57,050 nt of DNA from a candidate division WWE3 bacterium (GTDB taxonomy: Bacteria; Patescibacteriota; 4484-211; GCA-002791395), in NCBI GenBank assembly GCA_013335095.1, contig JAAXWF010000002.1:146516-203565 (forward strand), in the 5' to 3' direction. The translations under genes were made by a program, and so were the position numbers. Under the pieces are notes generated by a model that saw only the letters and a program-made list of their open reading frames with translations, did no database searches and had not been told where the DNA came from. Below are positions 1 through 39,198 of the stretch, one piece after another (the stretch's first letter is position 1; the number at the start of each line of letters is the position of its first letter).

Positions 1-552
1 CTCCGAAGCAGGGGCGCAGTTCGTTAACCGAAAGGCAATAAACTCGACTCCCCATTGATTGGCCTGTTCTTTGATTCGAAGGATCAAAGACTCCGAAACC
101 TGCTCAGTTTGAGCGAGTTGTCCGTAATCATGGTAGCTTGAAAGCTCATCCCGCAGGATAGCCATGCAGAAATCGCTTAGAGAAGCTTCCAGATCATCGA
201 TTTCGAACAGCGCCTTGTAAATATCTACAACGCGAAACAAGACCGTCGCAGATACGATGAAGGTCAGACCATTCGGCAGAAGGATTCGCTGCTCCTCGAA
301 ACGCAAGGTCTGTTGGCGCACATGCCGACGTGGTAGGGAGTCAATCCACGGGATCAGGAATACAAATCCGGGATGTATTACCCGAGGTGTTCCTGAACGA
401 TCCCGAACGACCTTTCCAAATCGGACTTTAAGACCGAGCTCACCTTCCTGAATGAACCGAAAGGACTTGAAAAACGTGACCACGGCTCCGATAACACTCG
501 CAGCAAGGGTTAAGAAGCCCTCCGATAGCAAGTTTCCCAAAAGTCCGGACAT
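1..552 (-). CDS. SPFH/band-7 (stomatin/prohibitin-like) domain protein. The N-terminal 184 codons are present and the 3' end lies beyond the window edge.
   Basis: My own translation of the reverse strand from the ATG at 552-550 gives MSGLLGNLLSEGFLTLAASVIGAVVTFFKSFRFIQEGELGLKVRFGKVV...VIHPGFVFLIPWID...VEFIAFRLTN. The frame stays open to position 1. It has an N-terminal TM helix followed by a typical SPFH core. A GGAGGG SD lies 5 nt upstream. The ORF track misses it because no stop codon falls inside the window. Confidence 0.75.
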   Translation of the reverse strand, partial: MSGLLGNLLSEGFLTLAASVIGAVVTFFKSFRFIQEGELGLKVRFGKVVRDRSGTPRVIHPGFVFLIPWIDSLPRRHVRQQTLRFEEQRILLPNGLTFIVSATVLFRVVDIYKALFEIDDLEASLSDFCMAILRDELSSYHDYGQLAQTEQVSESLILRIKEQANQWGVEFIAFRLTNCAPASE

Positions 553-572
553 GAGTCCCTCCATGGATGAAA

Positions 573-589
573 TGCAGTAATTTACTGCA
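573..589. promoter_or_regulatory. Perfect palindrome TGCAGTAA-T-TTACTGCA about 20 nt upstream of the SPFH start codon. Candidate operator or leader hairpin.
   Basis: The 8+8 nt inverted repeat was read directly from the sequence. Confidence 0.3.
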
Positions 590-673
590 GTGACCGATTG
601 TAGCGATTCATATTATACATAGGGCTTAAAATAACGAAAAATTTTACTTGTCTTGAAAATCAATACACACAAG

Positions 674-1510
674 TTATGGAGAGGTTCCGTACTGGCTGGC
701 AAGTATTCCCAAATCAAATACATTGACGACTGTATCTTGGTTTATATCGGCTCTTCGCTCTATATCGGTAGAAGAACTATCGATGGTTTTATTATAGTTA
801 GCCGCAAGAACTCCAAGGTCAAAAACATTTACCGTACCATCCTGATTAATATCAGCACTATACGGAGCCGGGGTTACGGTAGCATTGGCAAATACAATTG
901 TGGCATTTTGAACGTTTTCTAAACTATCAGTAGCGGTCCCAACTACTGCTAAATTGGTATCATTCAAATTCCCTAGAGTAAAATCAAAGGTAACATTGGT
1001 AGAAGCGGCGCCAGAGACATTAAAGACTAATGTTGCGAGTGGTTGAGTTATGGTCTGACTTCCACTGTACGGAGCCAAAAGTTCTTTTGTTACCGGATCT
1101 ACGTTTACTGCACTGAATCGAAGTGATCCCGTTTGATTAGCGGACTGCATTACTGATGATTTATTCAAATTACCATTTGAGTCGGCTGGCAAAAAAGATT
1201 TAAGTGTATGGGAAGATCCATTAGTCACGATGTCGGTTAATTGCAGCCGGGCAATTGAAAAGTTGATGGAGATATCGACTCCGACAACGTTACTTCCATT
1301 GGTATTGAGAGTAATTGGAACTTCTATTGAGCTACCTGCTGCATTAATTTGAGCCGGCATAGACAGTTGCCCAACATAGGCCTTACTTTCGGGTTTTGGA
1401 AATAAACGACGAAAAAGCTCGCGCCCGACTGGAAGAGATGCGGCTAATACAAAGAAAATTAGTACGCCACTAATCACTGCTATAAATGGAAGTATATCTT
1501 TTCGCTCCAT
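674..1510 (-). CDS. Membrane-anchored cohesin-domain protein with a C-terminal type-I-like dockerin (scaffoldin/adaptor-like).
   Basis: It has an N-terminal TM helix (ILPFIAVISGVLIFFVLAA). A cohesin-like beta-sandwich region follows (SIEVPITLNTNGSNVVGVDISINFS...LATLVFNVSGAASTNVTFDF). The C-terminus carries two dockerin repeats (DINQDGTVNVFDLGVLAANY and DINQDTVVNVFDLGILASQY). Confidence 0.8.
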   Translation of the reverse strand: MERKDILPFIAVISGVLIFFVLAASLPVGRELFRRLFPKPESKAYVGQLSMPAQINAAGSSIEVPITLNTNGSNVVGVDISINFSIARLQLTDIVTNGSSHTLKSFLPADSNGNLNKSSVMQSANQTGSLRFSAVNVDPVTKELLAPYSGSQTITQPLATLVFNVSGAASTNVTFDFTLGNLNDTNLAVVGTATDSLENVQNATIVFANATVTPAPYSADINQDGTVNVFDLGVLAANYNKTIDSSSTDIERRADINQDTVVNVFDLGILASQYGTSP

Positions 1511-1617
1511 CGATTTTTTTATCCTAACTCTTAATATACATTGATTATAAAGTTACGACTAGAGACTCCATCAACATGATCATTGAAAGGTATTGATAAA
1601 TAGGTACAATAATAACA

Positions 1618-5880: not shown

Positions 5881-5882
5881 TA

Positions 5883-8018: not shown

Positions 8019-8183
8019 TTTGATTAAGGTTTTTCGATAGATCAGGGAGGATCATTCAAATACGTAACATCCCAAATATTAAATTGCTCATTAGTTAACA
8101 GAAAACAAATATCTGATGATCGATGATGCCGTCGGATATGAAGTAAATACCTATTCAATAGACGATATAATAATACGTAAGAT

Positions 8184-8813: not shown

Positions 8814-8885
8814 AACCCCATAGTCTATATTGTGCATATATATTAAAATAATATCGTTCGTCGCATTTTCGTTAAGGAGGGCTTG

Positions 8886-9929
8886 ATGACTACAAGTAGT
8901 AGTCGAACCATGGATGACCCAGCGGATAATCAGGGTCAAACGACAGGTGGAAAGAAGAGTGGGTTTGGCATCATTAAGCTAATCCTACTCACCATTCTGT
9001 GGATCGTTATCCTATTGGTGGTGCTAGTCATAACACCTTTCTGGCTAGTGACAGTCAAAATACTGAGTTGGATCGGGTCTGATAAACTCCGCGTCCGACG
9101 GGGCTGGCTCCAGCTGCCGATCAAAACATACCAGAACAAAAACGGTCAAACGATCGTGATGGTATGTGTCATGCACGTCGCGTCGCCAACGTACTATGCG
9201 TTTATCCGGAAAACCATCGCCGAATACGAAGCGAAGCAGTACAGGGTACTGTACGAACTGGTAGATAAATCTCCCCGCGAAGAGATGGAAAAGCTACCAG
9301 AAAATACTCGCTTAATCTTGCGATGGTTGGCTAATGCCCAGCGAACGATAAGACATGCAACCAAAGGGCTTAGAACCCAAAGTCAGTTAACTGGCTTACC
9401 AATCAAAAAAAGTTGGATCAACACGGACATGACGATCGCTCAATTATTAACACGGCTAGCTCCGGTGTGGGGCGACCGACTGTCAGAGTCGACCTTTGAT
9501 GTGCTAACCAATCATCCTGATCAGGCCGGACCACTTCTAAAGTGGGTGTACAACCGATTCTTCTCATGGGGTGTAGTTCTTTACGGCCTCTCGGATATCG
9601 GACGCTTCATGCCCTTCGGCAGGGGACTGCATCAAGTCATCCTGGTTGAACGAAACGATATCGCTTATCAGGCGATTCAAGAACACCTCCCTCAAGCGAA
9701 TATTGTTTCGATCTGGGGTGCGGCTCATATTTCGGACATGCACCGCCGTTTAAGACGGGATGGATTCCGAATCGTCTCGGTGATTTGGGTAAATGCGTAT
9801 CGAATAAAAAGGATCGGTTTATTCGGTACTATCCGCACCATCATCCGGCCGAAGGGCCCGCGCTTCTCACAGCATCAAGCCTGGCTGATTAAGCCAAATC
9901 GGTTCCCAAAATCCCGATGGCGTCGCTAA
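8886..9929 (+). CDS. Membrane protein, possibly TraB/GumN-family-like. It lies in a G+C-enriched island.
   Basis: The ATG at 8886 is preceded by AAGGAGGG (the ORF track begins at the TTG at 8883). One or two TM helices follow. The stretches VMVCVMHVASPTYY and IWGAAHISDM resemble the N- and C-terminal TraB/GumN motifs. The family assignment is weak. Confidence 0.5.
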   Translation: MTTSSSRTMDDPADNQGQTTGGKKSGFGIIKLILLTILWIVILLVVLVITPFWLVTVKILSWIGSDKLRVRRGWLQLPIKTYQNKNGQTIVMVCVMHVASPTYYAFIRKTIAEYEAKQYRVLYELVDKSPREEMEKLPENTRLILRWLANAQRTIRHATKGLRTQSQLTGLPIKKSWINTDMTIAQLLTRLAPVWGDRLSESTFDVLTNHPDQAGPLLKWVYNRFFSWGVVLYGLSDIGRFMPFGRGLHQVILVERNDIAYQAIQEHLPQANIVSIWGAAHISDMHRRLRRDGFRIVSVIWVNAYRIKRIGLFGTIRTIIRPKGPRFSQHQAWLIKPNRFPKSRWRR

Positions 9930-9936
9930 CAGACTT

Positions 9937-9973
9937 GAGGAGGATGCTTACGCGTTCTCCTCATTATTTTTTT
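9937..9973 (+). terminator. Intrinsic terminator after the 8886..9929 gene.
   Basis: The hairpin is GAGGAGGATGC-TTA-CGCGTTCTCCTC, followed by ATTATTTTTTT. Confidence 0.6.
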
Positions 9974-10053
9974 CTATTGTCGGAATATATCCTAAAAATA
10001 ATAACTCGTTCAAATTGACAAAAATCGTACGTTCAGCGTATCCTTCTATCAGT

Positions 10054-13209: not shown

Positions 13210-13216
13210 GAGAAAT

Positions 13217-13252
13217 AAAAAAACCCCGCCCAAGATTAACTTGAGCGAGGCG
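13217..13252 (-). terminator. GC-rich imperfect hairpin plus T-run (read on the minus strand) after gene 13275..13676.
   Basis: The minus-strand sequence is CGCCTCGCTCAAG-TTAAT-CTTGGGCGGGG followed by TTTTTTT. Confidence 0.5.
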
Positions 13253-13274
13253 ATAACTTTTAACGCCAGTCGAA

Positions 13275-13676
13275 CTATTCGACAGGCACCAGACAAACGC
13301 CGAGACGATACCGGCGATTATCTTCCCGCACCCCTAGGGAAATCTCCCGGAGAGTACGCACGACGATGCCGCCGGACCGACTCTGATCAGATGGCCACGC
13401 GGCAACGACCAGATCCTCAAGCATGACGACCTCAGCAGTTAGCTGGGCGTTCGCCTCGGCTTGGGCAGTTAGTGGCCCCTGAGCCTCGACGACCTTCTGC
13501 ATAAGAATAGGCCGAGCCTTGGTAATCGCGTCAGTGCGATTGCGGCCTAGGACATAGGTCTGGGACCCAATATCGGACGGCCCATCCACAGTGCTAATTC
13601 GGGATGAAAAGGTTACCCGCCAGACAAATTCCCCATCCGGGGTTGGCGTACTCGCAACCGGTTCTCGTGTAGTCAT
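13275..13676 (-). CDS. Hypothetical protein (133 aa) in a G+C-rich island.
   Basis: The ORF is preceded by CAGGAG 8 nt before the ATG and by a TATAAT box further upstream. Two 60-nt lines inside it gave about 53% and 65% G+C by hand count. I recognise no family. Confidence 0.6.
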   Translation of the reverse strand: MTTREPVASTPTPDGEFVWRVTFSSRISTVDGPSDIGSQTYVLGRNRTDAITKARPILMQKVVEAQGPLTAQAEANAQLTAEVVMLEDLVVAAWPSDQSRSGGIVVRTLREISLGVREDNRRYRLGVCLVPVE

Positions 13677-13739
13677 AAATTTGACTCCTGTAAGGTACCT
13701 CCAGCCAGTAAGACCTGTTAATTATACTATATATGTAAA

Positions 13740-15086
13740 TTATTCGACAAATAATCCCGAAGAGACGGTATCAGTCACGAATTTAGTTTCAGAATCGGTA
13801 TCGGTACCATTTAATTGAGCTTCAAATCCATCACGAGAGGTGATCATAATTTCGGTATCGGCTAGTTCTCCCGAGACACTTGGGCGTTTGATTATATAAA
13901 ATGTCGCCCCCGCAGCTGTTCGAGATCTATTAATCCTAAGGGCATTGTCATTACGAGCATCGGCTAAGGTGGCCATATCTTCATCGCTTATAACGACGAG
14001 AAGATCAATATCTGACGGATCCTCGGCATCAATACTACGCGGACGGAGTTCCTTTCGTGCGGCCGATCCGGTTAACATAATGGATAAGATATGTGATACA
14101 CCAAGAGCCGCGACATCTTTACGTGCCTGAGCGATTTCTTGTGAAATCAAATCATAATGTTCATAGTCAGACATCTCTGATTCAAAGGTACGTTCAACAA
14201 CTGTTTCATTAGTTCCTTCTAAATCCTCATTGGTATGAGGAGAGTCTCCCCATAACTCTTCTCTCACCATCGCCATTCGAAAGGCTTCAGGGTCATGAGG
14301 ATATTCGTTAAGAGTTTCGGTTACTTGGGCTAAATCAGCTTGAGCATCAGCTCCACCATATACTTCTAAAGATGCCGCACGCAATGCAACTTGTCGATAA
14401 TTTGCCGAAGTTTGCGCCGGTGTACATCCGCGCATATGGGATTGCATGCGATCTCTAAACGCCTGGAGCCGACTGTTTGAAGCATCTTCGGATAAATCGA
14501 CACCCTCTAGAGTACTTAAATATTTTGTTAACGAATCTCGTTGGCGTTCAAAGGCCCGTTGAGTTTCGGGGGAATGATTTTTTTGTTTTAGTGTATTAAT
14601 TCGTAACGTCAATGCATCATACGTAGCGATTAAATCCCCTGTTCGAACCTGTTCACCTTTTTGGTCAGGGTTCATTAGGGACGTAAACGATTCATTCGAT
14701 GAGCTTGTATCAGATGTTTGCTCAGCGGTATTTCTTTGATCCATTCGTTCAAGTGTTGTCCAAATTTTCTCTTTCGCGGTAGGGTAATTGGGATCACATC
14801 GATCAATTCCATATAACCAGATGCCAACAGAACCATATGGGTCATCTGCGTTGGATTCCTTTTCTTTAGACTCAACGGTCGTCCCAGAAGATTGCCCTGC
14901 GTCAGTCTCGGTTATGTCGGGTAATTTTTCGACACCAGCCATTTTTTCTGCGGTAGTTAAAAAGTCGACGGTATCATGGACAATTTGCTGTGCTTGTCCT
15001 TCAACCTTATGAATATCATCTGGACCAACGGGGGGCTTTTCGTTTTTTAAGGTCTCAGATCGTTCAATTTGATTTGTTTCGGCCAT
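13740..15086 (-). CDS. Acidic cytoplasmic protein with a C-terminal minimal nucleotidyltransferase (Pol-beta superfamily) fold.
   Basis: The stretch ...IMLTGSAARKELRPRSIDAEDPSDIDLLVVISDE... matches the GS-x(n)-DxD signature of MNT-type nucleotidyltransferases. The first ~330 aa are unrecognised, helical and acidic. Confidence 0.6.
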   Translation of the reverse strand: MAETNQIERSETLKNEKPPVGPDDIHKVEGQAQQIVHDTVDFLTTAEKMAGVEKLPDITETDAGQSSGTTVESKEKESNADDPYGSVGIWLYGIDRCDPNYPTAKEKIWTTLERMDQRNTAEQTSDTSSSNESFTSLMNPDQKGEQVRTGDLIATYDALTLRINTLKQKNHSPETQRAFERQRDSLTKYLSTLEGVDLSEDASNSRLQAFRDRMQSHMRGCTPAQTSANYRQVALRAASLEVYGGADAQADLAQVTETLNEYPHDPEAFRMAMVREELWGDSPHTNEDLEGTNETVVERTFESEMSDYEHYDLISQEIAQARKDVAALGVSHILSIMLTGSAARKELRPRSIDAEDPSDIDLLVVISDEDMATLADARNDNALRINRSRTAAGATFYIIKRPSVSGELADTEIMITSRDGFEAQLNGTDTDSETKFVTDTVSSGLFVE

Positions 15087-15092
15087 ATTATT

Positions 15093-15368: not shown

Positions 15369-15415
15369 AGCTATTATTTATTGTAATACATGTATGCACC
15401 AATCGTTAAGCAGGA

Positions 15416-20706: not shown

Positions 20707-22435
20707 ACCAACAAGTGCTCAAAGATACAAGGGTACACATAGAAACGTTTTACTAGACCCGATAATGAACAATCGTTCATTACTTACAAGTATCGCTCTA
20801 TCTCTCTCTTTAGTTGCGCTTGCTACGATAATCAGTTACACAGCACCGTTTTATCAATCCTTTTTATCCAAGATGTACCCCAAAGATGAAAGCAGTGCCG
20901 CAACAGCAATCGATTTTTATACCTATCAATCGAGTTATTCACTTACCCGATCAAAACCGACTTCTAGTAGTGTATGGATCAATAATCAACAACAAGTAGC
21001 CTTAAATGCACAAACGACCTGGACCAAAAGTGTCTCACTAACCTTGGGGGATAATGCAGTTACGATTAGCTACAAAAATAGCTCTGGAACCCAAGTTTCA
21101 AGCGAAGTTCTTACGATACGCCGCAATGGTGAAGGTGATATTAACGGCGATGCATCAGTTAGTGTGTTTGACTTAGGGATACTCATCGGAAACTATAACC
21201 AATCAATAACGACGACATCTACCACAAATCAATTAATGAGCGATTGCAATAATGATCAATCAGTCAACGTATTTGACTTGGGAATTCTCGCCGCACAATA
21301 TGGACAATCGTATAGTTATCAGATTGTGAGTAATACGCCGACTCCAACTTCTAATCCCAAAACGCCCACCCCGACTTCGGGATCAACGACAAATAGCGCT
21401 GAGTATACGTATTCTTTTCAAGTATCACGAAATGTAACCAAAAACATTTATTACAACGATTTAACGTATATTGTGCATGTTGGTGAAGTCGGATCACCGG
21501 CGGTAACCGTAGGCACCGTCGCAGTTTCAAGTAATTATAATGCTCAGACAGGCGATCTAAAATTCACTACCGATAAAACTGGAACGGTAAATATTACCTT
21601 TAGTTCGTCGGGAACGACTAATGTAACGGTCAAGAAAGCGGCCTTAAAAGATGATCGAGGATGGGCATGGTCACATGGGATGGATGACAATGTAAATCTT
21701 TCTAACCAGATAAATGCAATTGCGGCCAAAGGTTGGAGAGCATCACTAATGCTTATTAGTAAAGATATTGATGAAACCCGACAAGAGGGTTGGATTATAG
21801 ACAAACCCGGATTACGCACCTTGGTTAATCAAGGATGGTCACTTGGGAATCATACCTGGGATCACAATTGCTCTGGTGGAAGTGCCAGTGAAATGAATGC
21901 AACGATTATTGATGGCTATAACAAATTAATGGAAATAGTGAACACCTCAAATCGTCCTTCATATAAAGTAATTACGTTTGCCGCTCCGTGTTTTATCTCG
22001 AATTATAATCCGTATATCGATGCAATGAGAAAAAATGGAACGACATCGGTGTTATTTAATGAGACGCAAGGAAATCCGCTGATGATTGTCGACGGAAGTG
22101 ATTATTCTAGTGGAGGAATGACGGCAGATTCAGTTAATTCAAATACAACTACAATTGGACGAGACACCACAATTGAGTCCGGTCCCGCAGATGCAATCTC
22201 CACGTTTGCCTGGATGTCGGCAAATAAAAATGCCAGTCGCCATTTTTGGTTCAATTCACTTACCCACGGAAACCAGGAGGACAATCTAACCCAGGTACTC
22301 AATAAAGCATATAGTTTGTATGGTCCTGGGGGAACAAATGAGATCTGGATGGCTCCGTCAGATGAGATTTACAGTTATTTAATGATAAAGGAAACGACCG
22401 AAATTAGTGGGGGAACTCTTACCAAAATAAATTAA
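20699..22435 (+). CDS. Membrane-anchored dockerin protein with a C-terminal polysaccharide deacetylase (NodB/CE4-like) domain.
   Basis: After a TM helix come dockerin repeats (DINGDASVSVFDLGILIGNY and DCNNDQSVNVFDLGILAAQY). The stretches SHGMDDN and LGNHTWDHN match CE4 metal-binding motifs. An alternative start exists at the ATG at 20765. Confidence 0.75.
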   Translation: MNKPTSAQRYKGTHRNVLLDPIMNNRSLLTSIALSLSLVALATIISYTAPFYQSFLSKMYPKDESSAATAIDFYTYQSSYSLTRSKPTSSSVWINNQQQVALNAQTTWTKSVSLTLGDNAVTISYKNSSGTQVSSEVLTIRRNGEGDINGDASVSVFDLGILIGNYNQSITTTSTTNQLMSDCNNDQSVNVFDLGILAAQYGQSYSYQIVSNTPTPTSNPKTPTPTSGSTTNSAEYTYSFQVSRNVTKNIYYNDLTYIVHVGEVGSPAVTVGTVAVSSNYNAQTGDLKFTTDKTGTVNITFSSSGTTNVTVKKAALKDDRGWAWSHGMDDNVNLSNQINAIAAKGWRASLMLISKDIDETRQEGWIIDKPGLRTLVNQGWSLGNHTWDHNCSGGSASEMNATIIDGYNKLMEIVNTSNRPSYKVITFAAPCFISNYNPYIDAMRKNGTTSVLFNETQGNPLMIVDGSDYSSGGMTADSVNSNTTTIGRDTTIESGPADAISTFAWMSANKNASRHFWFNSLTHGNQEDNLTQVLNKAYSLYGPGGTNEIWMAPSDEIYSYLMIKETTEISGGTLTKIN

Positions 22436-22487
22436 AAAAGAAGGGCCGGAACCTTGGGTAGAGAAACCTCTCCCAAAGCCCCGACCC
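22434..22487 (-). terminator. Long GC-rich hairpin plus T-run (read on the minus strand) after gene 22503..22826.
   Basis: The minus strand reads GGGTCGGGGCTTTGGGAGAGG-TTTC-TCTACCCAAGGTTCCGGCCC followed by TTCTTTTTT. The stem is imperfect and nested. Confidence 0.45.
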
Positions 22488-22502
22488 ACCGGCGATCATG
22501 TC

Positions 22503-22826
22503 CTACACCTCCTCGAACACTGGACGAACCCCGGTGAACCCGGGGAAGTGGTGGGGACGGAGATCCGAAATGACCTCCAATGCCGACCTTCCGTTCTGCC
22601 CTTTGAACTTGTAGAGGTTTGTGACCTCTGTCAGTGAGGCAAAAGTCGTAAAGCCAGCTTCCGACAGGGCAAATGCCCATTCAGCGGGGGTGAGTCGAAC
22701 TCCCGCCGCATGAGCTTGTTGGGCAACGCGATCAATGGCGTTAACGACACGATCACGGCCCAATTCGTTCACGGTGACTTTAACAGCCTCGAAGAGCACC
22801 TGTTTTTCAGCGGGAACGTCGGACAT
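22503..22826 (-). CDS. Hypothetical protein (107 aa) in a G+C-rich island.
   Basis: The ATG at 22826 has GAGGAGGGG 7 nt upstream. The ORF-track start at 22844 has poor SD spacing. I recognise no family. Confidence 0.55.
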   Translation of the reverse strand: MSDVPAEKQVLFEAVKVTVNELGRDRVVNAIDRVAQQAHAAGVRLTPAEWAFALSEAGFTTFASLTEVTNLYKFKGQNGRSALEVISDLRPHHFPGFTGVRPVFEEV

Positions 22827-22844
22827 CTGAACCCCTCCTCTCAT

Positions 22845-23066
22845 GGGGGAATGAAGGTCCCCCTCCTTGTTGTGTTCCGCAATCTCTCGCGGAACGCCTT
22901 AAGCCGACCGTTTAAGGCCGGCACCTCTTATCCGGGCCGTAAAAAGCACAAAGCATGCTTTTTACGGCCCAGACAAGCCATAAAAGGAGATCAGTGTAGG
23001 TTATTCGCTGGTATTTAAAGTACGCTACAGTTACCTGTAGTTAGTAAAACCTCTTAAGGGCTTTAC
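22845..23066 (-). promoter_or_regulatory. Long, highly structured 5' leader or candidate cis-regulatory RNA upstream of the 107-aa gene.
   Basis: Six consecutive hairpins were read from the sequence: 23043-23067 (AGTAAA/TTTACT), 23025-23040 (CTACAG/CTGTAG), 22934-22970 (a perfect 15-bp stem, GGGCCGTAAAAAGCA/TGCTTTTTACGGCCC), 22896-22918 (GCCTTAA/TTAAGGC), 22874-22895 (GTTCCGC/GCGGAAC) and 22845-22863 (GGGGGA/TCCCCC). The last hairpin lies about 12 nt upstream of the SD. Confidence 0.4.
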
Positions 23067-23073
23067 TGCCTCT

Positions 23074-23102
23074 ATTATACCGGAAAATTGGCCACAGAAC
23101 AA
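23074..23102 (-). promoter_or_regulatory. Sigma-70-like promoter: -35 TTGTTC, 17-nt spacer, -10 TATAAT.
   Basis: The reverse complement of 23097-23102 is TTGTTC and that of 23074-23079 is TATAAT. The promoter faces the structured leader and the 107-aa gene. Confidence 0.35.
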
Positions 23103-23140
23103 TTACTATAAGTCTTAAGTGGGCTCTACATCAATAAATA

Positions 23141-23217
23141 TGGTACCCCCGGCAGGGATCGAACCTGCGACCTAGAGCTTAGAAGTCTCCCGCTCTATCC
23201 AACTGAGCTACGGGGGC
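23141..23217 (-). tRNA. tRNA-Arg (anticodon TCT) with encoded CCA.
   Basis: I folded the cloverleaf by hand. The acceptor stem pairs GCCCCCG with CGGGGGT. The D arm is GCTC-AGTTGGATA-GAGC. The anticodon loop is CTTCTAA. The T arm is GCAGG-TTCGATC-CCTGC. Confidence 0.9.
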
Positions 23218-24842: not shown

Positions 24843-24863
24843 CCATAATCTTTGAGTAAATTA

Positions 24864-25334: not shown

Positions 25335-25377
25335 TTCGTACTTAATATTACTATTCCACTGAAAGCACGCAAGATTA

Positions 25378-26493: not shown

Positions 26494-26550
26494 AGTTCAT
26501 ATTGGTAAATTCTATATTACGATGAAAATCAAGCACTCGCAAGGACGCAC

Positions 26551-28335: not shown

Positions 28336-28341
28336 ACGGCA

Positions 28342-29634: not shown

Positions 29635-29695
29635 TCGTTCATAATACGAAGTATCTGGGTTGAGTCAAGAGAGATTCTAATCAGCTCGTGATAGT

Positions 29696-31573: not shown

Positions 31574-31591
31574 TCATTCACTCTTAAAAAT

Positions 31592-31624
31592 AAAAAAAGG
31601 GGTGCCGGACGTATCCGACACCCC
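31592..31624 (-). terminator. Intrinsic terminator of the UPF0182 gene, read on the minus strand.
   Basis: The minus strand reads GGGGTGTCGGA-TACG-TCCGGCACCCC followed by TTTTTTT. A second perfect hairpin, TAGCATCTT-AA-AGATGCTA, lies at 31627-31646. Confidence 0.65.
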
Positions 31625-31657
31625 TAGGCTTAGCATCTTAAAGATGCTATGGCCAGT

Positions 31658-34600
31658 TTACTCACCACACTTCAAACCGACTTCCAGGCCGATTCGTGCG
31701 ATTTCTGCCGCCGCCGTTTTATCACCCGCTTGCTGACGAGAGATCGCGACGTTCAGCTGATCGATCAAAGCAGCGCAATCACCCGTGGGGGCAGTTGCCG
31801 GCTGTGTTGTACCACTATCAACCGGATTGACTGCGGGTGCTGTTGTAGTAGCACTCGCCCCCGTATCGGCTGACGCGACACCTTCTCCCCGCAAGAATCG
31901 GGTTAAGGCAATATTCAGGTTCGATCCATCGGTAGTCAAACCATCCGGACGGACCGTATACGCCTTAACCAAGAACGGCACTTTCGTGTTGCCGGTCCTG
32001 AACTCAAACTGCGGTTTGATATACACAAACGACGCAGCAGAGCCGTCTGCGCTCATGACCGGAACCATAATCTGGTTCCCCCAGCGCAGCATACCATTCT
32101 GGGATGGTTTGAAGGTAGGCTGCCCAGTTCGAGTCAAATAGGTATCGATGTAGCCTTGCACCTGCTCGGTGCTGACTACACTTACCCCTTGCGGCATTGT
32201 CCACGCCGCAAACTGACCGTACCGAGTCCCCATTCGCACGACCAGATAGGCCCGTAGAATCGACTTCGATACCACCTGGCCATTCTCTTTACCTGACTGG
32301 TTCAGAGGAATTGCCAGAACCGGCTCATTCGCCTCACCACCTGGCAAACGCACCGTCATGTACCGCGCAGGTACCGGAGCAGTTGCGTCATTGTACGCCT
32401 CTGACGGCACAAGCCACACGTTATCGGTGTTATACAGTGAGTCAGGACTATCAACATGGTAGTTCTGGAACACCCTGACCTGTACATTAAACACATCCTC
32501 AGGATATCGGACTTGCGCCCTCAGTTCCTGAGGCATTTCGGCGGCTGGCCTAAACAGGCTCGGATAAACCCGTCGCCATGTTGCCAACACTGGCTCGTTC
32601 TCATCCTGTGCATACAACGAGAGATCCCCGTTGTACGCTCCAAGAGTCGCTTTAACCGAAGCGCGCAGATAGCTAAAGCTGCGGCCATCGTTTTCGTTAA
32701 AGCCTCCTTGGGCTAGCGCATAGGGGAAGTTACTCCCGATGCTCGCACCATCCGTCATCCAGACAAGCTGCTGACCGCCGTTCACCGCAAAGGGATCATT
32801 ATCCCAGGCGATAAACGGAGCCAGCAGGCGAAGCTGGTCGAGCGGACGCCGATGTATGAACAGCCGACTCTCGGGTGTAATCTGGCTACTAATCAGCACC
32901 CGATAATCGTCAAGCGCTACGGCAATGATAAATCGCCGCAAACCGCTGCCGATTTGCAAGCCACCAGTACCATCATAGTGAGGCTTTCCGGCAACGCCTG
33001 AAGGGTTGCCCTCCTCATCCATCAGTGTATTGGCGATCACCCAGTTATTCGGGATCTCACCAAAACACACGCCTGGTTTAGCCGGAATCAGAGACTGATC
33101 ACCAGTCATCGGGACATTATCCACGATAAACTGAGGCGATCCATCCCTATTGGTTTCAGTTGCCGAAGCAACGACCCATCCGAGCCCGCAGGGAAACTGC
33201 AGATGGACATTACTCCACGATCGATTCTGCAGTGATCCAGGGTTAATCTCACGTACCGCCGACATCACCGTTCCACCCGGCGTAAAGATCAGATCGGTAT
33301 CGCTAAAGTCATAGAAGGTCTGGCCTTCTTTCTGATCATTAGCGTATGCCGCAACCGCGCTCCAGTCTTGGACACGCGCTTGGGCCAAAGAGGCCTCGTT
33401 GCTTCGATAATCCTCATCAGACAGAACCGGCGTGTATGGGTAATCCTGTGTTTGAACAGAATCAATCCCATATGCCCGCTTGGTCGCTGCTAGATGTTCA
33501 GCGATGTACGGCTTCTCTTTAACCAGCTGCTCGGGACCGACCATAAAGGTCTGTGTCACCGATGGCCAGCCGAAGACGTGACAGAACACCAGCGCACCAA
33601 AGGCGATACCCGCCATACGACCGAGTGATGGCTTCTTTTTCCCCATGATCAGGTCAACGACGCCAATGATGAACGCCGAAATGACCAACCAGAAGATCAG
33701 CACCATCACATACGCGTCAGACGAAATCAGCACGGATGCAATGATCGGTGTCAGAGCAGCAAATGAGAGCAAGCCGAATCGCCCCTTGAAGAGGGCAAAC
33801 ACAGCCACTCCCGTTGCCACGAAAGACAGGATCGGCATTACCCGCATCAGCGGTATGCGCACCAGGACATCGGTAAAACCAGCCCCGGTATAGTGATCGT
33901 GCGCCTTGAAGACGAGCTCGAAGGGAGCAAAGTACATTCCGGCGATACCAACCACGATATACAGCAGTGCCAACAGGCCGAAACCGTTGAACACACGTTC
34001 CTTGATCGACTCCATCGACCCATTGAGGTGATGGAATGTCGCTCGTACTGCGAGCAGTACCGCGGCCGTCGCGATCAGGAAAATCAGCCACACGCGAATT
34101 GCCGAGAACAGTGGCAATTCCCACATGTAGAAGCTCGTATCCATACCGAAAACCTTGTCGTTGATCGCATCCCCAAAGGGGACACGGTTGACAAACGGTA
34201 GGATCCGATCAGTCATGCCCGAAAGGGTTAGGCCTCCAAACAGCGTCCCAAGAACCATCACCACCCAGTTTGCTAACCGCATGGTGTCGGAATTCTCGAG
34301 AGAGTCGAGAATGTCTACCGTATCAGGCACTTTTGGTCGAATTGGGAGGGGACAGGCTTCATTGACCCCGAGTAACGCGGTCAAGGTGAGCACGGTACCC
34401 ACGATCCATAGGCCGATCCGCCACCAAAGCGGCGTCAGGAACACATCGGCCTGCCCCATATTGGCAAACCACCAGTATTCCACTACGGTCTTTGAAATCG
34501 CTTCAACGCACCAGGTGATTGCTGAGAGTCCGGTGAACACCGCGACAGCAACAATAACCCCGGCGGTTATAGCGTTCTTACGCATTCGCAGATATGCGAT

Positions 34601-34792
34601 ACCACCCAGCACCACTGCCGCCACGATATTGATGATCATGACGTACGTCGATAGGCCACTGGATACGTTTCCGTCACCAGCTACCGACGGTGCTGAAAAT
34701 GCCATGACGATAATGCTAAGCACCACGTACACAGCTACTCCAAGCGCTGTCGGCCATACGGGCCTCCGTTGGATCTGCTTTCCTGGGCTCAT
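31658..34792 (-). CDS. UPF0182-family large membrane protein.
   Basis: It has about 7 N-terminal TM helices and a large C-terminal extracytoplasmic domain. The overall size (about 1044 aa) fits the family. Segments such as EYWWFANMGQADVFLTPLWWRIGLW and YMTVRLPGG...LRAYLVVRMGTRYGQ...VSTEQVQGYIDT resemble UPF0182 proteins (e.g. the mycobacterial Rv3193c type). I prefer the ATG at 34792, which has AAGGAGGA 8 nt upstream. Confidence 0.7.
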   Translation of the reverse strand: MSPGKQIQRRPVWPTALGVAVYVVLSIIVMAFSAPSVAGDGNVSSGLSTYVMIINIVAAVVLGGIAYLRMRKNAITAGVIVAVAVFTGLSAITWCVEAISKTVVEYWWFANMGQADVFLTPLWWRIGLWIVGTVLTLTALLGVNEACPLPIRPKVPDTVDILDSLENSDTMRLANWVVMVLGTLFGGLTLSGMTDRILPFVNRVPFGDAINDKVFGMDTSFYMWELPLFSAIRVWLIFLIATAAVLLAVRATFHHLNGSMESIKERVFNGFGLLALLYIVVGIAGMYFAPFELVFKAHDHYTGAGFTDVLVRIPLMRVMPILSFVATGVAVFALFKGRFGLLSFAALTPIIASVLISSDAYVMVLIFWLVISAFIIGVVDLIMGKKKPSLGRMAGIAFGALVFCHVFGWPSVTQTFMVGPEQLVKEKPYIAEHLAATKRAYGIDSVQTQDYPYTPVLSDEDYRSNEASLAQARVQDWSAVAAYANDQKEGQTFYDFSDTDLIFTPGGTVMSAVREINPGSLQNRSWSNVHLQFPCGLGWVVASATETNRDGSPQFIVDNVPMTGDQSLIPAKPGVCFGEIPNNWVIANTLMDEEGNPSGVAGKPHYDGTGGLQIGSGLRRFIIAVALDDYRVLISSQITPESRLFIHRRPLDQLRLLAPFIAWDNDPFAVNGGQQLVWMTDGASIGSNFPYALAQGGFNENDGRSFSYLRASVKATLGAYNGDLSLYAQDENEPVLATWRRVYPSLFRPAAEMPQELRAQVRYPEDVFNVQVRVFQNYHVDSPDSLYNTDNVWLVPSEAYNDATAPVPARYMTVRLPGGEANEPVLAIPLNQSGKENGQVVSKSILRAYLVVRMGTRYGQFAAWTMPQGVSVVSTEQVQGYIDTYLTRTGQPTFKPSQNGMLRWGNQIMVPVMSADGSAASFVYIKPQFEFRTGNTKVPFLVKAYTVRPDGLTTDGSNLNIALTRFLRGEGVASADTGASATTTAPAVNPVDSGTTQPATAPTGDCAALIDQLNVAISRQQAGDKTAAAEIARIGLEVGLKCGE

Positions 34793-34912
34793 ACGAACCA
34801 TCCTCCTTGGCTTAAACGAAACCCATACGCCTCCCACATAGGAAGCGGACTTTAGGTCGTCGACATTATACTATCGGACACACGGTAAAACAATATTGGA
34901 TATGTAACAAAC

Positions 34913-34941
34913 AAAAAAAGGCCGGAACGATTGTTCCGGCC
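34913..34941 (-). terminator. Intrinsic terminator after gene 34992..35456.
   Basis: A perfect 9-bp stem (GGCCGGAAC-GATT-GTTCCGGCC) is followed on the minus strand by 7 T. Confidence 0.7.
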
Positions 34942-34991
34942 AAGTAATTAAAGATATAAAACAAACGGCGCTACGTGTTTACATTAGCGAG

Positions 34992-35456
34992 CTAGATCTT
35001 GAGCGATCGGACACGGGCAAGCGCGATACTGACCCGCGCTTCATGAAGCAAGAACTCACGCCGGAACCACAGCATGCCGATGAGCAGGATCGGCACACTG
35101 ATGATCGTATTCGTGAGCAGAAATACAGCAGGATTGGCGATGAACCCCGCTGGTCCCATCCGACGAATAAAGATGAACTGGATGATCACGGCTATCAGCT
35201 GAAGCATGCTCACCCCGATAGCCCGCCAGGTCATCTTTTGCGCAGAAGTTGCCCAGACACCATACACCAGAAACAGCGTTGCGGCGAAACCGATAAGGTA
35301 GCCGATCGCCATCTGGGTCAAGTCACACCGCACCTGCGGGAACGCCAGGTAGTAGATCAGCGAGAGTACGAACCATCCCAGACAGGCGAGTAGCCAGCCG
35401 ATGGAAAGTTCGTAGAACCGTTGGGTCGACAGCATAACCTGCGTCCTGTTTCTCAC
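34992..35456 (-). CDS. Small 4-TM membrane protein, hypothetical.
   Basis: The GTG start has GAGGAGG 7 nt upstream. Four hydrophobic segments are visible. The gene lies in the G+C-rich island. Confidence 0.55.
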   Translation of the reverse strand: MRNRTQVMLSTQRFYELSIGWLLACLGWFVLSLIYYLAFPQVRCDLTQMAIGYLIGFAATLFLVYGVWATSAQKMTWRAIGVSMLQLIAVIIQFIFIRRMGPAGFIANPAVFLLTNTIISVPILLIGMLWFRREFLLHEARVSIALARVRSLKI

Positions 35457-35541
35457 CTCAACACCTCCTCATGAAAACGGCGCCGAATGATCAGCTTGAT
35501 GATAGTAACAAAAAGTAAAGAAAATATCAAACTATAGGACT

Positions 35542-35575
35542 AAACAACAAAGGCCGAAGTATTGCTACTCCGGCC
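35542..35575 (-). terminator. Probable terminator hairpin after gene 35599..36093.
   Basis: The hairpin is GGCCG-A-AGTA-TTGC-TACT-C-CGGCC. On the minus strand it is followed by TTTGTTGTTT, a weak T-run. Confidence 0.4.
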
Positions 35576-35598
35576 ATATTCACCGACCCGATTAGAAA

Positions 35599-36093
35599 CT
35601 AGAAGCCATGGGCGTAAAAGCCCATCTCACCGCCGGCCTGAAAGCTATCGTCACCTTGGGCGACGTGGCGCAGATGCGATACGACGAGAGACTCCTCAAA
35701 GCTCTCAAGGTCGTCATCATCACCTTCAGGCTGGGCATCGAGCCGGGCCTCGATAAGACACCGCGCGTACTTGCCCGCGACGGCTCGGACCAAGCCCGTC
35801 TCGCTTCGAATGGCCCCTCGGTACACCAGTCTAAAGACAACGCTATACGCATTGCCGTCAGGCAGAGGAACCACACTCGAAGTGATGTGTGCATCGCTCC
35901 CAAAGGCATCAGTTAACGCCTGATGCCAATACTTAAACGGATCCACGATCGGATCAGGAGCAATGTAAGCTAAAAAGCGAACGATCGTTACACCGACGTC
36001 GATTGATTCTTGACCGATCACGTACAACTGCCCAAACGGGGCACCATTCTTACCGCGACGAATCGTCGCATTCGGAAAAATTCCGTCCATCAC
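35599..36093 (-). CDS. Hypothetical protein (164 aa) in the G+C-rich island.
   Basis: CAGGAGG lies 5 nt upstream of the ATG. An upstream promoter is visible (TTGAAT, 17-nt spacer, TATAGT with an extended TG). I recognise no family. Confidence 0.55.
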   Translation of the reverse strand: MMDGIFPNATIRRGKNGAPFGQLYVIGQESIDVGVTIVRFLAYIAPDPIVDPFKYWHQALTDAFGSDAHITSSVVPLPDGNAYSVVFRLVYRGAIRSETGLVRAVAGKYARCLIEARLDAQPEGDDDDLESFEESLVVSHLRHVAQGDDSFQAGGEMGFYAHGF

Positions 36094-36250
36094 TACCTCC
36101 TGTGGCTATTGCCAGCAACGTGTGGGAATGAGTACCACTTCCCACGAGTGGCCCTTACGGTGCCATCACTATACCAAATGCAATCACATAATTCAAACTA
36201 TAGGGCTAACTTATCAGCAAATTCTCAGGTAATTCTTTATAATGAAATGT

Positions 36251-36931: not shown

Positions 36932-36932
36932 C

Positions 36933-37931
36933 ATGTTTGAATCTGCCCGACTTAAACTCACTGCATGGTATTTAGCGATCATCGCGATACTAAGTCTGTC
37001 GTTTAGTCTTCTTGTATATCAAGGAATACGCGGCGAAATAAATCGCACGGTAAGCGAACAGCGTGAAAATATAGAGCTAATATCGCATGGTACAGTAACG
37101 ATCGACTCGGCATTAGAAGATAAGCTCCAACGTCGTGTTTTACTCAACATGTTTTTGATCGATATAGTGATACTGATTTTGACCGGTGGCGCTGGCTATC
37201 TTTTGGCTGGTAAAACGATGCGTCCGATCGAGGCGATGCTTGAAGAACAAAAACGATTTGTCAGTGATGCCTCGCACGAACTCCGCACACCACTAACTGC
37301 GCTTGCGACTTCTACTGAGGTTGCTTTACGAGATAAAAATTTAAGTATGAATGAGGCAAGGGAAGTCCTGCAAAGTAATTTAGATGATGTGTCGGAATTG
37401 CAAGATTTAATTAATCATCTTTTAGAATTAGCACGTTTCCAGCAAAATAAAGAACCAGAGCAACTCGACGACGTCGCGCTTGATGACGCAATAGAATCGG
37501 GCATACAAAAAGTTAAGCATCTAGCCGAACAAAAAAACATTCACATCACCGCTCATTTACTGCCCGTTCGGATTAAAGCCCATTCCTCGAGAATTACCGA
37601 ATTAATCATAATACTTCTAGACAATGCCATAAAGTACAGTAGCCCTGATAAAAAGATTACCATTGATGTTCATGACACAAAAAATAATGTAATTATTGAA
37701 GTTCGGGATCAAGGTATCGGAATATCACCCGATGAATTGCCCCACATATTTGATCGATTTTACCGAGTTGATCAATCGCGCAATCGGACATGCCAGGATG
37801 GATATGGACTTGGTTTATCGATCGCTCAAAAAATAGTTCACGCATATAAGGGATCAATAAACGTAACAAGCAAGGCAAATGAAGGTAGTCTATTTACGAT
37901 TATGTTTCCACAAAGCAGTCTTAAGAAGTAG
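36933..37931 (+). CDS. Sensor histidine kinase, partner of the OmpR-type regulator.
   Basis: It has two TM helices, a HisKA H-box (SHELRTPLT) and HATPase N, G1 and G2 boxes (LDNAIKYS, DQGIGI, GYGLGLSIA). Confidence 0.9.
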   Translation: MFESARLKLTAWYLAIIAILSLSFSLLVYQGIRGEINRTVSEQRENIELISHGTVTIDSALEDKLQRRVLLNMFLIDIVILILTGGAGYLLAGKTMRPIEAMLEEQKRFVSDASHELRTPLTALATSTEVALRDKNLSMNEAREVLQSNLDDVSELQDLINHLLELARFQQNKEPEQLDDVALDDAIESGIQKVKHLAEQKNIHITAHLLPVRIKAHSSRITELIIILLDNAIKYSSPDKKITIDVHDTKNNVIIEVRDQGIGISPDELPHIFDRFYRVDQSRNRTCQDGYGLGLSIAQKIVHAYKGSINVTSKANEGSLFTIMFPQSSLKK

Positions 37932-37935
37932 ATAA

Positions 37936-38541
37936 TTAATTGAAACGGATGCTGCTCGTAATATCATCAAGGATGCTCATATTGGCATCGATCGAATCGC
38001 CCAAGTAAACCAAATTATATCGAGGAAAATCTTCTAAGAGCGGGCCGAATCCATGATTTTGCGGCGAGGCGAATAGCACGTAATAAGTTTTATTATCAGC
38101 AAGTCGGTAGTAAACTCTTTTTTCCACTGAGTACTCCAGTACATTTTTATTTGAAGTAATGACATCACAAACAGTATTGTTATCATTTTGCTCTCCACAA
38201 TAATCCGGATTATTAACATACGGATCAAAACCAGTAAAAAGAGAATCGACACTCAAAAGCCATTCGACACCATTACTCTTTATCGAGATTTGATGAGTTT
38301 CATTGGTATCTGTTGCTGCTGATGTTTCGGGAACTACACTAACCGTCCAATCCGAAGGATATTTAAAGGATATTTTGGTATTGGCATCGGTATAATCACT
38401 CCAATTTATTGCGGTATTTTGTGGGGTAAAAGTCTGTTGGGTTGTAGGATTTGCCTGAGTACGTGCCCAATAATAATAACCACCACCGGCACAAATGATC
38501 AGGAAAATAACAAGACTATTTAAAACTAATCTTTTATTCAT
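37936..38541 (-). CDS. Secreted or anchored hypothetical protein (201 aa).
   Basis: An N-terminal TM/signal segment is present (LVLNSLVIFLIICAGGGYYYW). I recognise no motif. Confidence 0.5.
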   Translation of the reverse strand: MNKRLVLNSLVIFLIICAGGGYYYWARTQANPTTQQTFTPQNTAINWSDYTDANTKISFKYPSDWTVSVVPETSAATDTNETHQISIKSNGVEWLLSVDSLFTGFDPYVNNPDYCGEQNDNNTVCDVITSNKNVLEYSVEKRVYYRLADNKTYYVLFASPQNHGFGPLLEDFPRYNLVYLGDSIDANMSILDDITSSIRFN

Positions 38542-38585
38542 TCACTTTATAGTATACTCCTGATCGATTTTTTTAAAGAGGTCTT

Positions 38586-38617
38586 AAAAAAGGCCACGGC
38601 GATTGTACACCGTGGCC
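38586..38617 (-). terminator. Intrinsic terminator after gene 38644..38991.
   Basis: A perfect 8-bp stem (GGCCACGG-CGATTGTACA-CCGTGGCC) is followed on the minus strand by 6 T. Confidence 0.7.
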
Positions 38618-38643
38618 GGCGCAACTAAAGATCAGGCGGCAAA

Positions 38644-38991
38644 TTAGTCATCCTGATCAAGTAAGATATGCAAGACACGGCAATACATAGCTTTGAGTTC
38701 TCGTTGATCAGCATGAGGAAACATCCGGTGAAACGGATTGTCGGCATCCTTCATATGCAGATGATAGCCGATTTCTCCCCGCGACACGGTTATCGCGACG
38801 TTCACATTTCCCAGAGCAAATGTAAAACCATCGACGGTTAAGCGTAGATCCGAAATATCCTGAGATCGCCAATCATTGCCGACGACTCGGCTTAGATCAG
38901 CGATATATAAAATGAGCTGTCGGATACTTGATTCCCAAGCCGGGACAAGCCTCATTTGAGGCCGCATAGGGGGCATCGGCACTGCGGTCAT
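38644..38991 (-). CDS. Hypothetical protein (115 aa) in a G+C-rich island.
   Basis: The ATG at 38991 has AAGGAGGA 5 nt upstream. The ORF-track start at 39072 has no SD. One 60-nt line inside it gave about 62% G+C by hand count. Confidence 0.55.
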   Translation of the reverse strand: MTAVPMPPMRPQMRLVPAWESSIRQLILYIADLSRVVGNDWRSQDISDLRLTVDGFTFALGNVNVAITVSRGEIGYHLHMKDADNPFHRMFPHADQRELKAMYCRVLHILLDQDD

Positions 38992-39198
38992 CTGATCCTC
39001 CTTAAGCGATATGGCACACGCCACATCATTGCTATTAATTCCGATTTCAAAATCCCGTAATGATCTAAACATATTGATAGGCCACTACCGAACTTCGTGA
39101 ATGCGGTGAAAATCACTAATAAAACAGCATGAAATGAGAAATTGCATTATACGAGATTAAAAGCACCAAATCAATCACTATAAGTCGAAGCATGGGGG

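Follow-up and report, generated by a model that had tools for sequence, protein, structure and literature searches.

We analyzed a window of 57 kb (the whole stretch of 57,050 nucleotides on contig JAAXWF010000002.1) from the genome of a candidate division WWE3 bacterium, in which eight genes residing in six segments of elevated G+C content (GC), henceforth designated as islands, are scattered among 39 other genes, henceforth designated as host genes. Start codons were corrected prior to the comparisons of composition below. Each of the island genes constitutes a self-contained expression unit, which we term a cassette, with a putative promoter, a leader carrying a Shine-Dalgarno sequence (SD), a coding sequence and a terminator. 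The eight cassettes and two features adjoining them are as follows (GC3, GC at third codon positions; dG, folding free energy of the terminator in kcal/mol).

1..626, minus strand: SPFH/Band-7 cassette; promoter 597-626 (AGCCCTATGTATAAT...TACAAT), SD GGAGGG at 558-563, start codon at 552, coding sequence cut by the left window edge (GC 0.50, GC3 0.53).
8816..9973, plus strand: TraB/GumN-like cassette; promoter 8816-8857 (CCCCATAGT...TTGTGC), SD AAGGAGGG at 8874-8881, coding sequence 8886-9929 (347 aa with an N-terminal transmembrane segment; GC 0.49, GC3 0.54), terminator 9936-9973 (dG -21.8).
13213..13750, minus strand: o133 cassette; promoter TTGTCG-N18-TATAAT at 13721-13750, SD CAGGAG at 13685-13690, coding sequence 13275-13676 (133-aa orphan; GC 0.58), terminator 13213-13251 (dG -20).
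22434..23114, minus strand: o107 cassette; promoter GACTTATAGTAA-TTGTTC-N17-TATAAT at 23074-23114, SD GAGGAGGGG at 22831-22839, coding sequence 22503-22826 (107-aa orphan; GC 0.56, GC3 0.60), terminator 22434-22487 (dG -35.4).
31588..34893, minus strand: UPF0182 cassette; promoter TTGTTT-N17-TATAAT at 34865-34893, leader of about 65 nt, SD AAGGAGGA at 34800-34807, coding sequence 31658-34792 (1044 aa; GC 0.54, GC3 0.60), terminator 31588-31625 (dG -22.9).
34912..35541, minus strand: tm154 cassette; promoter AGTCCTATAGT-TTGATA-N17-TACTAT at 35502-35541, SD GAGGAGG at 35462-35468, coding sequence 34992-35456 (154 aa with four hydrophobic segments judged by eye from the sequence; GC 0.55, GC3 0.72), terminator 34912-34941 (dG -18.3).
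35542..36207, minus strand: o163 cassette; promoter AGCCCTATAGT-TTGAAT-N17-TATAGT at 36168-36207, structured leader of about 75 nt, SD CAGGAGG, coding sequence 35599-36090 (163 aa), terminator 35542-35575.
38586..39186, minus strand: o115 cassette; promoter GACTTATAGTGA-TTGATT-N17-TATAAT at 39146-39186, leader of about 150 nt, SD AAGGAGGA at 38995-39002, coding sequence 38644-38991 (115-aa orphan; GC 0.48, GC3 0.47), terminator 38586-38617 (dG -21.5).
23141..23217, minus strand: tRNA-Arg(TCT), detected by ARAGORN and Rfam, immediately upstream of the o107 cassette.
36242-36931 and 36933-37931, plus strand: OmpR-type response regulator and histidine kinase, identified by Pfam, of host composition and divergent from the o163 cassette.

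The composition of the islands departs from that of their surroundings at every level compared. The GC of the whole window is 41.7%; a 300-nt profile displayed exactly six elevated segments and nothing comparable at 39-57 kb, so that all six segments claimed in the first-pass annotation were recovered by the profile as well as by the per-gene statistics. The island genes ranged from 0.48 to 0.58 in GC and from 0.47 to 0.72 in GC3 (n=8), and the host genes from 0.337 to 0.451 (mean 0.402) and from 0.265 to 0.481 (n=39), respectively; the two sets differ in GC3 with a Mann-Whitney p=1.3e-8. The background is accordingly of about 40%, not the 33-35% formerly given for the adjacent genes. All codon positions and the amino acid composition are shifted in the island genes, with a combined Gly, Ala, Arg and Pro fraction of 0.277 versus 0.203 in the host genes (p=4e-8). 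At four-fold degenerate sites, A drops from 0.34 in the host genes to 0.17 in the island genes and both G and C increase, while T changes by -0.03 only. Seven of the eight island genes are on the minus strand, as had been noted. In their atypical GC3, the islands resemble classical genomic islands acquired horizontally.

The signals for expression divide the genes in the same way. A canonical SD was found 5-8 nt 5' of the start codon in all of the eight island genes, in agreement with the first-pass annotation; the coordinates it assigned to the SDs are wrong and mark the start codons, the corrected positions of which are 552 (SPFH), 8886 (ATG, not the TTG at 8883), 22826, 34792, 36090 and 38991. 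The anti-SD duplex energies, scored for the seven island genes that were correctly anchored, were between -6.9 and -16.1 kcal/mol (-11.7 or lower in six of the seven), whereas the host mean was -1.1. Likewise, a GC-rich hairpin followed by a T-run, with dG of -18 to -35 kcal/mol, terminates each of the seven island genes of which the 3' ends lie inside the window, while the best terminator among the 39 host genes reached a dG of -9 (Fisher p=1.9e-8). The two sets do not overlap in terminators and scarcely overlap in GC3. Thus, the earlier statements that GC-rich hairpin terminators follow every island gene ending in the window, and that most low-GC genes have neither SD nor terminator, both hold. 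Furthermore, 23 of the 39 host genes (eight with an exact TACAAT) but none of the island genes have a TANNNT box whose end lies 4-13 nt 5' of the start codon. In the window, there are consequently two gene classes, in which composition, initiation mode and termination are perfectly coupled.

Most of the host genes start 6-13 nt after a -10 box of the TACAAT type and are therefore probably leaderless. By their predicted starts, they combine a Pribnow-type box with the lack of SD, as in the leaderless-rich genomes of the GeneMarkS-2 group C type. TACAAT or TATAAT is found 6-13 nt 5' of the host starts at 1618, 5883, 15368(-), 23313, 47065-48249(-), 54314, 54915, 55814 and others, and such boxes also precede apparent internal members of operons (5883, 54915 and 55814), which suggests a largely monocistronic and leaderless architecture in a genome of 40% GC. 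Leaderless-type genomes are known mainly from Actinobacteria of high GC and Deinococcus.

The putative promoters of the islands are of the sigma-70 type and share a further element, C[CT]{1,2}ATAGT, which is upstream of five of the eight island genes and none of the 39 host genes. ATAGTATAAT is found at the -10 box in both the UPF0182 and o133 cassettes. A 15-mer, AGTCCTATAGTTTGA, followed by N17-TATAAT was also seen at position 19212 of L008, an unrelated locus of a metagenome-assembled genome of Patescibacteria, and the promoter element may be more widespread. The leader of the o107 cassette (22827-23073, minus strand), which extends for about 250 nt between tRNA-Arg(TCT) and the start codon, is GC-rich and contains four stable hairpins, one of which encloses a second SD-like sequence, AAGGAGGGGGA. 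In Rfam, this leader gave only a sub-threshold match to the speF leader (22.3 bits vs. 37), and the other island leaders gave sub-threshold matches only.

Two island proteins belong to recognizable families. The SPFH gene (1-552) matched PF01145 with 73.2 bits (gathering cut-off 23.6; E=3.5e-20), and the HflC/HflK equivalog models matched its product below their cut-offs. The UPF0182 gene, the start of which is supported by the gene call P0001, matched PF03699 with 529.6 bits (cut-off 27; E=1.6e-158) but stayed below the curated NCBIfam cut-offs (423, 336 and 249 bits vs. 995, 949 and 1254 for NF000825, NF002707 and NF009097, respectively). Thus, the UPF0182 assignment made earlier stands for the family, but does not extend to the curated actinobacterial or other subfamilies. 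The match of the TraB/GumN-like protein to PF01963 was weak (16.6 bits vs. a cut-off of 26.8) and no relative was found in PDB, although its sole homologue (P0015; 32% identity) carries a precomputed PF01963 match. Neither tm154 nor the four soluble proteins of 107-163 aa matched any entry in Pfam, NCBIfam, PHROGs or PADLOC, and a generic PHROGs match of the SPFH protein was all that PHROGs and PADLOC yielded for the island proteins. The AlphaFold2 model of o163 had a predicted local distance difference test score (pLDDT) of 67, with no fold match in PDB at E<=0.001. The o133 gene (13275-13676) was called only by Logan and not by NCBI, and the orphan at 38.6 kb (38644-39072) is of 115 aa according to NCBI and of 142 aa according to Logan; the pipelines therefore treat the island genes inconsistently.

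The abrupt GC steps at the gene boundaries might be taken as the mark of a chimera, in which GC-rich pieces of foreign DNA had been joined to an AT-rich contig. However, the window proteins are encoded not only on a 358,632-bp NCBI contig but also in the independent Logan assemblies of run SRR11449211. Two of the Logan contigs, of 53.0 kb and 23.8 kb, match the window at 100% identity over 19,934 and 20,429 bp, and together they span five of the six islands. In addition, the junctions lie between genes, in functional sequence where promoters and terminators are properly placed, and another organism, sequenced in another run, has an AT-rich/GC-rich junction of the same kind (see below). The concern about a chimeric assembly raised in the first-pass annotation is largely removed, and we regard assembly artefact or contamination as hardly credible.

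The first-pass annotation had proposed that single genes were transferred from a donor of high GC. If such transfer from the actinobacterial host of an epibiont were recent, the genes would be unameliorated, and composition is indeed atypical at all codon positions, while the canonical SDs and terminators look foreign. The UPF0182 family is universal in Actinobacteria (bioRxiv 10.1101/2025.11.14.688347), and the contigs that encode the nearest homologues of the island protein (L079 and L080) are GC-rich throughout (61% and 69% GC), with neighboring genes unrelated to the window. Nevertheless, in searches against 5.8 billion clustered and 1.84 billion representative proteins, no close homologue of any island protein was found, the best being of 26-27% identity for UPF0182, 32% for the TraB-like protein and 42-43% for o163. 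No high-GC donor was found in these protein searches or in IMG/VR, PLSDB and INPHARED, leaving the proposal unsupported; specifically, the IMG/VR scans detected no relatives of the four orphans, and the 4.6-kb island had no blastn match in PLSDB or INPHARED. The homologue of the TraB-like protein is on a contig of 42% GC (L082; ENA ERZ4903072, 1640 bp), the gene context of which is likewise unrelated to the window. Each gene on L082 is preceded by TTGACT-N17-TATAAT and a leader with a hairpin and a strong SD, and is closed by a terminator, in a cassette-like style with no GC contrast.

The host genes are as isolated as the island genes. A flanking protein of 625 aa has no homologue at all, the UvrD-like gene matched GTDB representatives from Peribacteria, Saccharibacteria, Chloroflexota, Bacilli and others at about 30% identity, and the 90% clusters of the island and host proteins looked up contained no member from another organism. 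Moreover, the genome signature of the islands is host-like. The GC-normalised dinucleotide distance between the islands and the host is 61 (x1000), within the sampling variation of the host itself (45 +/- 18 for 6.75-kb samples, 95th percentile 77) and not that of a foreign sequence. Out of 119 unrelated loci, a single one is less distant from the islands than the host, and GC-matched loci are at a median distance of 99 (n=44). Traces of mobility are scarce as well: Pfam scans of all window genes detected no integrase or transposase, no attC-like sites were found at the islands, and the search for flanking direct repeats yielded nothing except a 12-nt A-rich match (31589/36295), which we judged to be by chance. 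The lack of integrase, transposase and repeats noted earlier is thereby borne out.

The evidence that bears most directly on the age of the contrast comes from the o163 locus. A full HMMER search of o163 against the 1.84 billion representatives recovered one real homologue, P0016, with 43% identity; a second match was rejected as a repetitive artefact. P0016 is encoded on a 2-kb contig, L083 (run SRR21121619), which is syntenic with 35.4-37.4 kb of the window. L083 contains orthologues of the response regulator (82.5% identical) and of the kinase (63% identical) on the same strand, with the o163 homologue divergent from them as in the window. The o163 homologue is followed by another promoter and SD, behind which a tandem o163 paralogue begins, and the C[CT]{1,2}ATAGT element recurs in both L083 cassettes. 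The o163 homologue has its own SD, CCAGGAGG, and terminator, GGCCGGAG...CCGGCC, and in the adjacent regulator gene, a TATAAT box precedes the ATG by 6 nt. The GC values of the two loci are as follows.

L083: response regulator 0.448, kinase 0.456, o163 0.591 (GC3 0.675); o163 minus regulator +0.143.
Window: response regulator 0.416, kinase 0.405, o163 0.552 (GC3 0.59); o163 minus regulator +0.136.

Synonymous divergence between the two lineages has reached saturation, as the third-base identity at four-fold sites of conserved residues is 0.23 in the regulator (0.27 by chance) and 0.28 in the kinase (0.26 by chance). Still, the four-fold composition of o163 is nearly the same in the two lineages (A 0.05/0.07, C 0.40/0.40, G 0.28/0.25 and T 0.28/0.28), unlike that of the regulator, in which A amounts to 0.41/0.33. 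The synonymous sites have turned over while the contrast was kept, and the contrast therefore behaves as an equilibrium rather than a decaying foreign signature. Homology is seamless from the response regulator into the o163 cassette: the intergenic regions align with a block of 12 identical positions out of 12 at the -35 region (CCTATAGTTTGA), and further conserved blocks comprise GTCGGTGAAT, which follows the stop codon, as well as the stem of the terminator and the next promoter with the early leader. The synteny comparison called for in the first-pass annotation, which was to speak against a foreign origin if relatives shared the genes and the contrast, gave exactly this outcome for o163, of which the closest homologue is in a relative with the same contrast. 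Because this island predates a split with saturated synonymous sites, recent transfer is contradicted for it. With the distant UPF0182 homologues far below every curated subfamily cut-off, the host-like signature, no mobility genes and an epibiotic lifestyle that is hypothetical, we consider recent transfer quite improbable for the islands as a whole.

The leader of o163 is also conserved (36095-36167 on the minus strand of the window and 1240-1315 of L083), and its two hairpins keep pairing through compensatory changes (CCACU/AGUGG vs. CCGCC/GGCGG and UGGC/GCCA vs. GGAGC/GCUCC), which, coming from two sequences, are suggestive only. An SD-like GUGGGA(G/A)G in the leader can pair with a conserved CAUUCCCAC. 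The z-scores for the folding of this leader were not significant. Judging from these features, the o163 leader could be a cis-regulatory RNA.

Altogether, we propose that the GC-rich segments represent a long-resident and separately expressed class of genes, the composition of which is maintained, rather than fresh or unameliorated imports, and assign this reading a probability of roughly 0.55. The evidence thus favors the native class that the first-pass annotation had set beside a foreign origin; it was directly shown for one of the six islands, and the maintained composition is extrapolated from o163 to the other five. The contrast in composition and signals would then be an evolutionary steady state, held by selection on the class or by a class-specific bias. 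More tentatively, and with somewhat less than even confidence, we put forward that the genome harbors two stable classes, an AT-rich bulk of leaderless genes with no terminators and a GC-rich minority that uses few A-ending codons, is SD-led and ends in terminators. The offset of about 14 points seen in the two lineages, held over evolutionary time, would imply selection on composition tied to the mode of expression, as in a conditionally translated or insulated regulon for membrane stress, instead of a relic of transfer.

Several observations weigh against maintained composition in a resident class. The relative offers about 2 kb for comparison and covers one of the six islands, and the two lineages do not carry the same genes downstream of o163. 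Two of the three contigs of the relative, L165 (SRR21121620) and L166 (SRR21121627), match L083 exactly but stop within the promoter of the o163 homologue, 85 and 56 nt 5' of the regulator gene, i.e., at the island edge; sparse coverage, a bias of coverage against sequence of high GC or variation in the population could account for these ends. Together with the differing downstream genes, they hint at a turnover of cassettes. The GC at first and second codon positions and the amino acid usage of the islands resemble a genome of about 60% GC, as expected of a foreign origin, the nearest UPF0182 homologues are on GC-rich contigs as described above, and the island at 22.4-23.1 kb (o107) abuts a tRNA gene. 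JGI metagenomes contained no match to the o163 alignment, while the response-regulator alignment retrieved regulator-kinase pairs of 58-70% identity on AT-rich contigs of 0.2-1.3 Mb, which, in samples of 20 kb, had no such islands or island homologues. The promoter motif was identified post hoc, the regulon and its function are deduced from sequence, and for the upkeep of GC in single genes there are candidate mechanisms only (selection acting on how mRNAs fold or how stable they are, the need to avoid cryptic -10 boxes, codon-specific effects on translation, and biased conversion). In two of the JGI contigs, L087 and L089, RNA models identified the GC-rich spots as tRNA and rRNA genes. Two large genes for secreted proteins in more distant relatives of about 47% GC (L098 17780-19939 and L099 15720-20452) have 61% GC and a GC3 of 0.75-0.78 with no SD, a pattern different from that of the window islands.

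A part of these observations fits a recurrent exchange of cassettes with an unsampled GC-rich pool, either a partner organism or mobile elements, in which a few permissive loci would repeatedly gain, duplicate or swap cassettes, and the continual replacement of the DNA would keep their composition donor-like. We regard this exchange as a serious rival, albeit an unlikely one. The terminator, the promoter and the early leader that follow o163 are homologous between the two lineages (1805-2013 of L083 and 35457-35598 of the window), but the open reading frame behind this second promoter is tm154 in the window and the o163 paralogue in L083, which suggests turnover of open reading frames inside a regulatory scaffold. 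The self-contained cassettes, the GC-richer usage of codon positions and amino acids, the tandem o163 paralogues, the contigs ending at the island edge, the tRNA gene beside one island and the much faster evolution of o163 than of the regulator (42% vs. 82% identity) are all in line with exchange. On the other hand, no member of such a pool was found in the protein collections, IMG/VR, PLSDB or INPHARED, the islands have no integrase, transposase, attC-like site or flanking repeat, their signature is nearer to the host than to 118 of 119 other loci, and homology runs seamlessly from the regulator into the cassette. Furthermore, the island GC tracks the host GC with offsets of +0.136 and +0.143, and an external pool would therefore not explain the constancy of the offset.

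GC-biased gene conversion, reportedly established for bacteria by Lassalle and colleagues in 2015, would raise GC, including that at non-synonymous sites, by biased repair at recombination hot spots, with the islands as fast-evolving loci that recombine frequently in the population. The rapid evolution of o163, a GC increase that affects all three codon positions, a contrast that is stable across lineages and the hints of population variation at the island edge agree with such a process. However, the shift at four-fold sites is asymmetric with respect to the coding strand (-0.17 for A vs. -0.03 for T) and is therefore not predicted by a strand-symmetric process, and the limits of the islands follow the transcription units sharply with the intergenic parts remaining AT-rich. 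We thus find biased conversion improbable, though a little less so than recent transfer.

Returning to the maintained class, a typical cassette would comprise a sigma-70-type promoter with C(C/T)(C/T)ATAGT on or beside the -35 box (in five of the eight), a leader of 30-280 nt with a strong SD, a GC-rich open reading frame poor in A-ending codons and a strong terminator. SD-dependent translation and G/C-ending codons would subject these genes to rules of expression unlike those of the leaderless bulk. The UPF0182 proteins of Actinobacteria are tied to FtsH-dependent quality control of membrane proteins and linked to a small transmembrane partner and YccA, and their predicted dome recalls HflK/C (bioRxiv 10.1101/2025.11.14.688347). 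The SPFH proteins include HflK/C, which are modulators of FtsH (NCBIfam models), and at least three of the eight island genes therefore point to one physiological theme. We infer that the islands may constitute a separately regulated and transcriptionally insulated regulon for quality control of the membrane or envelope, of which the SPFH/HflKC-like protein, UPF0182 and small membrane proteins would be members, and which is possibly driven by the adjacent OmpR-type two-component system conserved in synteny.

The islands are surrounded by ordinary chromosomal genes, namely those for surface proteins with dockerin, CBM and beta-helix domains, an ABC transporter, several two-component systems, a UvrD-like helicase, Shedu and GNATs. 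The Shedu (SduA) anti-phage defence gene (41916-43103, minus strand) has a host-like composition and adjoins tRNA-Leu(GAG) (43186-43275, minus strand). There are four tRNA genes in the 57 kb (23141-23217, 43186-43275, 45225-45299 and 51632-51706), three of which read G/C-ending codons (Lys-CTT, Leu-GAG and Gly-GCC); this is worth noting in an AT-rich genome, in which the island class prefers such codons. The adjacent surface-protein genes at 1618-5880 and 5883-8018 share DNA of 70-72% identity (4058-4493 and 7474-7918), which is a paralogous region containing CBM.

An atypical GC routinely serves to recognize recent horizontal transfer and also to date it. At one syntenic locus, a GC excess of 14 points with distinct initiation and termination has outlasted the complete turnover of synonymous sites. 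If this were true for the whole class, a single bacterial genome could hold base composition at a second equilibrium, transfer detectors that rely on composition would misclassify genes of this kind, and leaderless and SD-led expression may define separately tuned sets of genes. For an uncultivated lineage with almost no sequenced relatives, the candidate promoter element, the conserved leaders and the neighboring two-component system would then offer regulatory handles on genes putatively linked to FtsH-type quality control of membrane proteins.

Among the known systems, islets of atypical genes (amelioration of Lawrence and Ochman; GeneMarkS-2, PMC6028130) are similar to the islands in being short segments that deviate by about 14 points in GC as well as in codon and amino acid usage, with many orphans and, in one case, a tRNA gene alongside. 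Atypical genes are more often AT-richer than the genome (PMC6028130), whereas the islands deviate upward in an AT-rich genome. The islands also differ from such islets in the absence of mobility genes and repeats, in their host-like dinucleotide signature, and in the synteny of the o163 islet with a relative, in which the contrast was kept past synonymous saturation. Compared with a classical genomic island, they have no mobility genes, direct repeats or att sites, one of them being beside a tRNA gene, and o163 is neither absent in relatives nor accompanied by close homologues in a donor (26-43% for the best island homologues).

Phage morons are single genes with their own promoter and strong terminator and a composition unlike that of their neighbors (Hendrix/Juhala), and the islands share this layout around a single gene of deviant composition. 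Unlike morons, the islands are not in a prophage, their neighbors being ABC transporter, two-component, helicase and surface-protein genes, no PHROGs match was found for seven of the eight island proteins, and the IMG/VR and INPHARED searches detected no viral relatives. They differ from an integron cassette array in that each island has its own promoter, the hairpins are terminators with T-runs, and no integrase is present. In codon-biased stress regulons, such as the modification-tunable transcripts of the mycobacterial hypoxia response, a related subset of genes uses a distinct set of codons. The islands similarly avoid A-ending codons and prefer G- or C-ending ones, but their shift also alters amino acids and is coupled to separate signals for transcription and translation. 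In comparison with the FtsH modules (HflK/C of the SPFH family; UPF0182 with YccA and a small transmembrane protein), there is no ftsH or yccA in the window and the island proteins are very divergent (26-27% identity for UPF0182, and below the HflK/C cut-offs), while the islands do encode an SPFH protein, UPF0182 and an adjoining small protein with four putative transmembrane segments. Finally, genomes of group C (Actinobacteria and Deinococcus-Thermus) have a Pribnow box 6-10 nt before many starts and an SD-led minority (PMC6028130), as do the window host genes with a near-start Pribnow box beside the SD-led islands. The initiation classes of those genomes were not reported to differ in composition or terminators, whereas here initiation, composition and termination are coupled across 47 genes.

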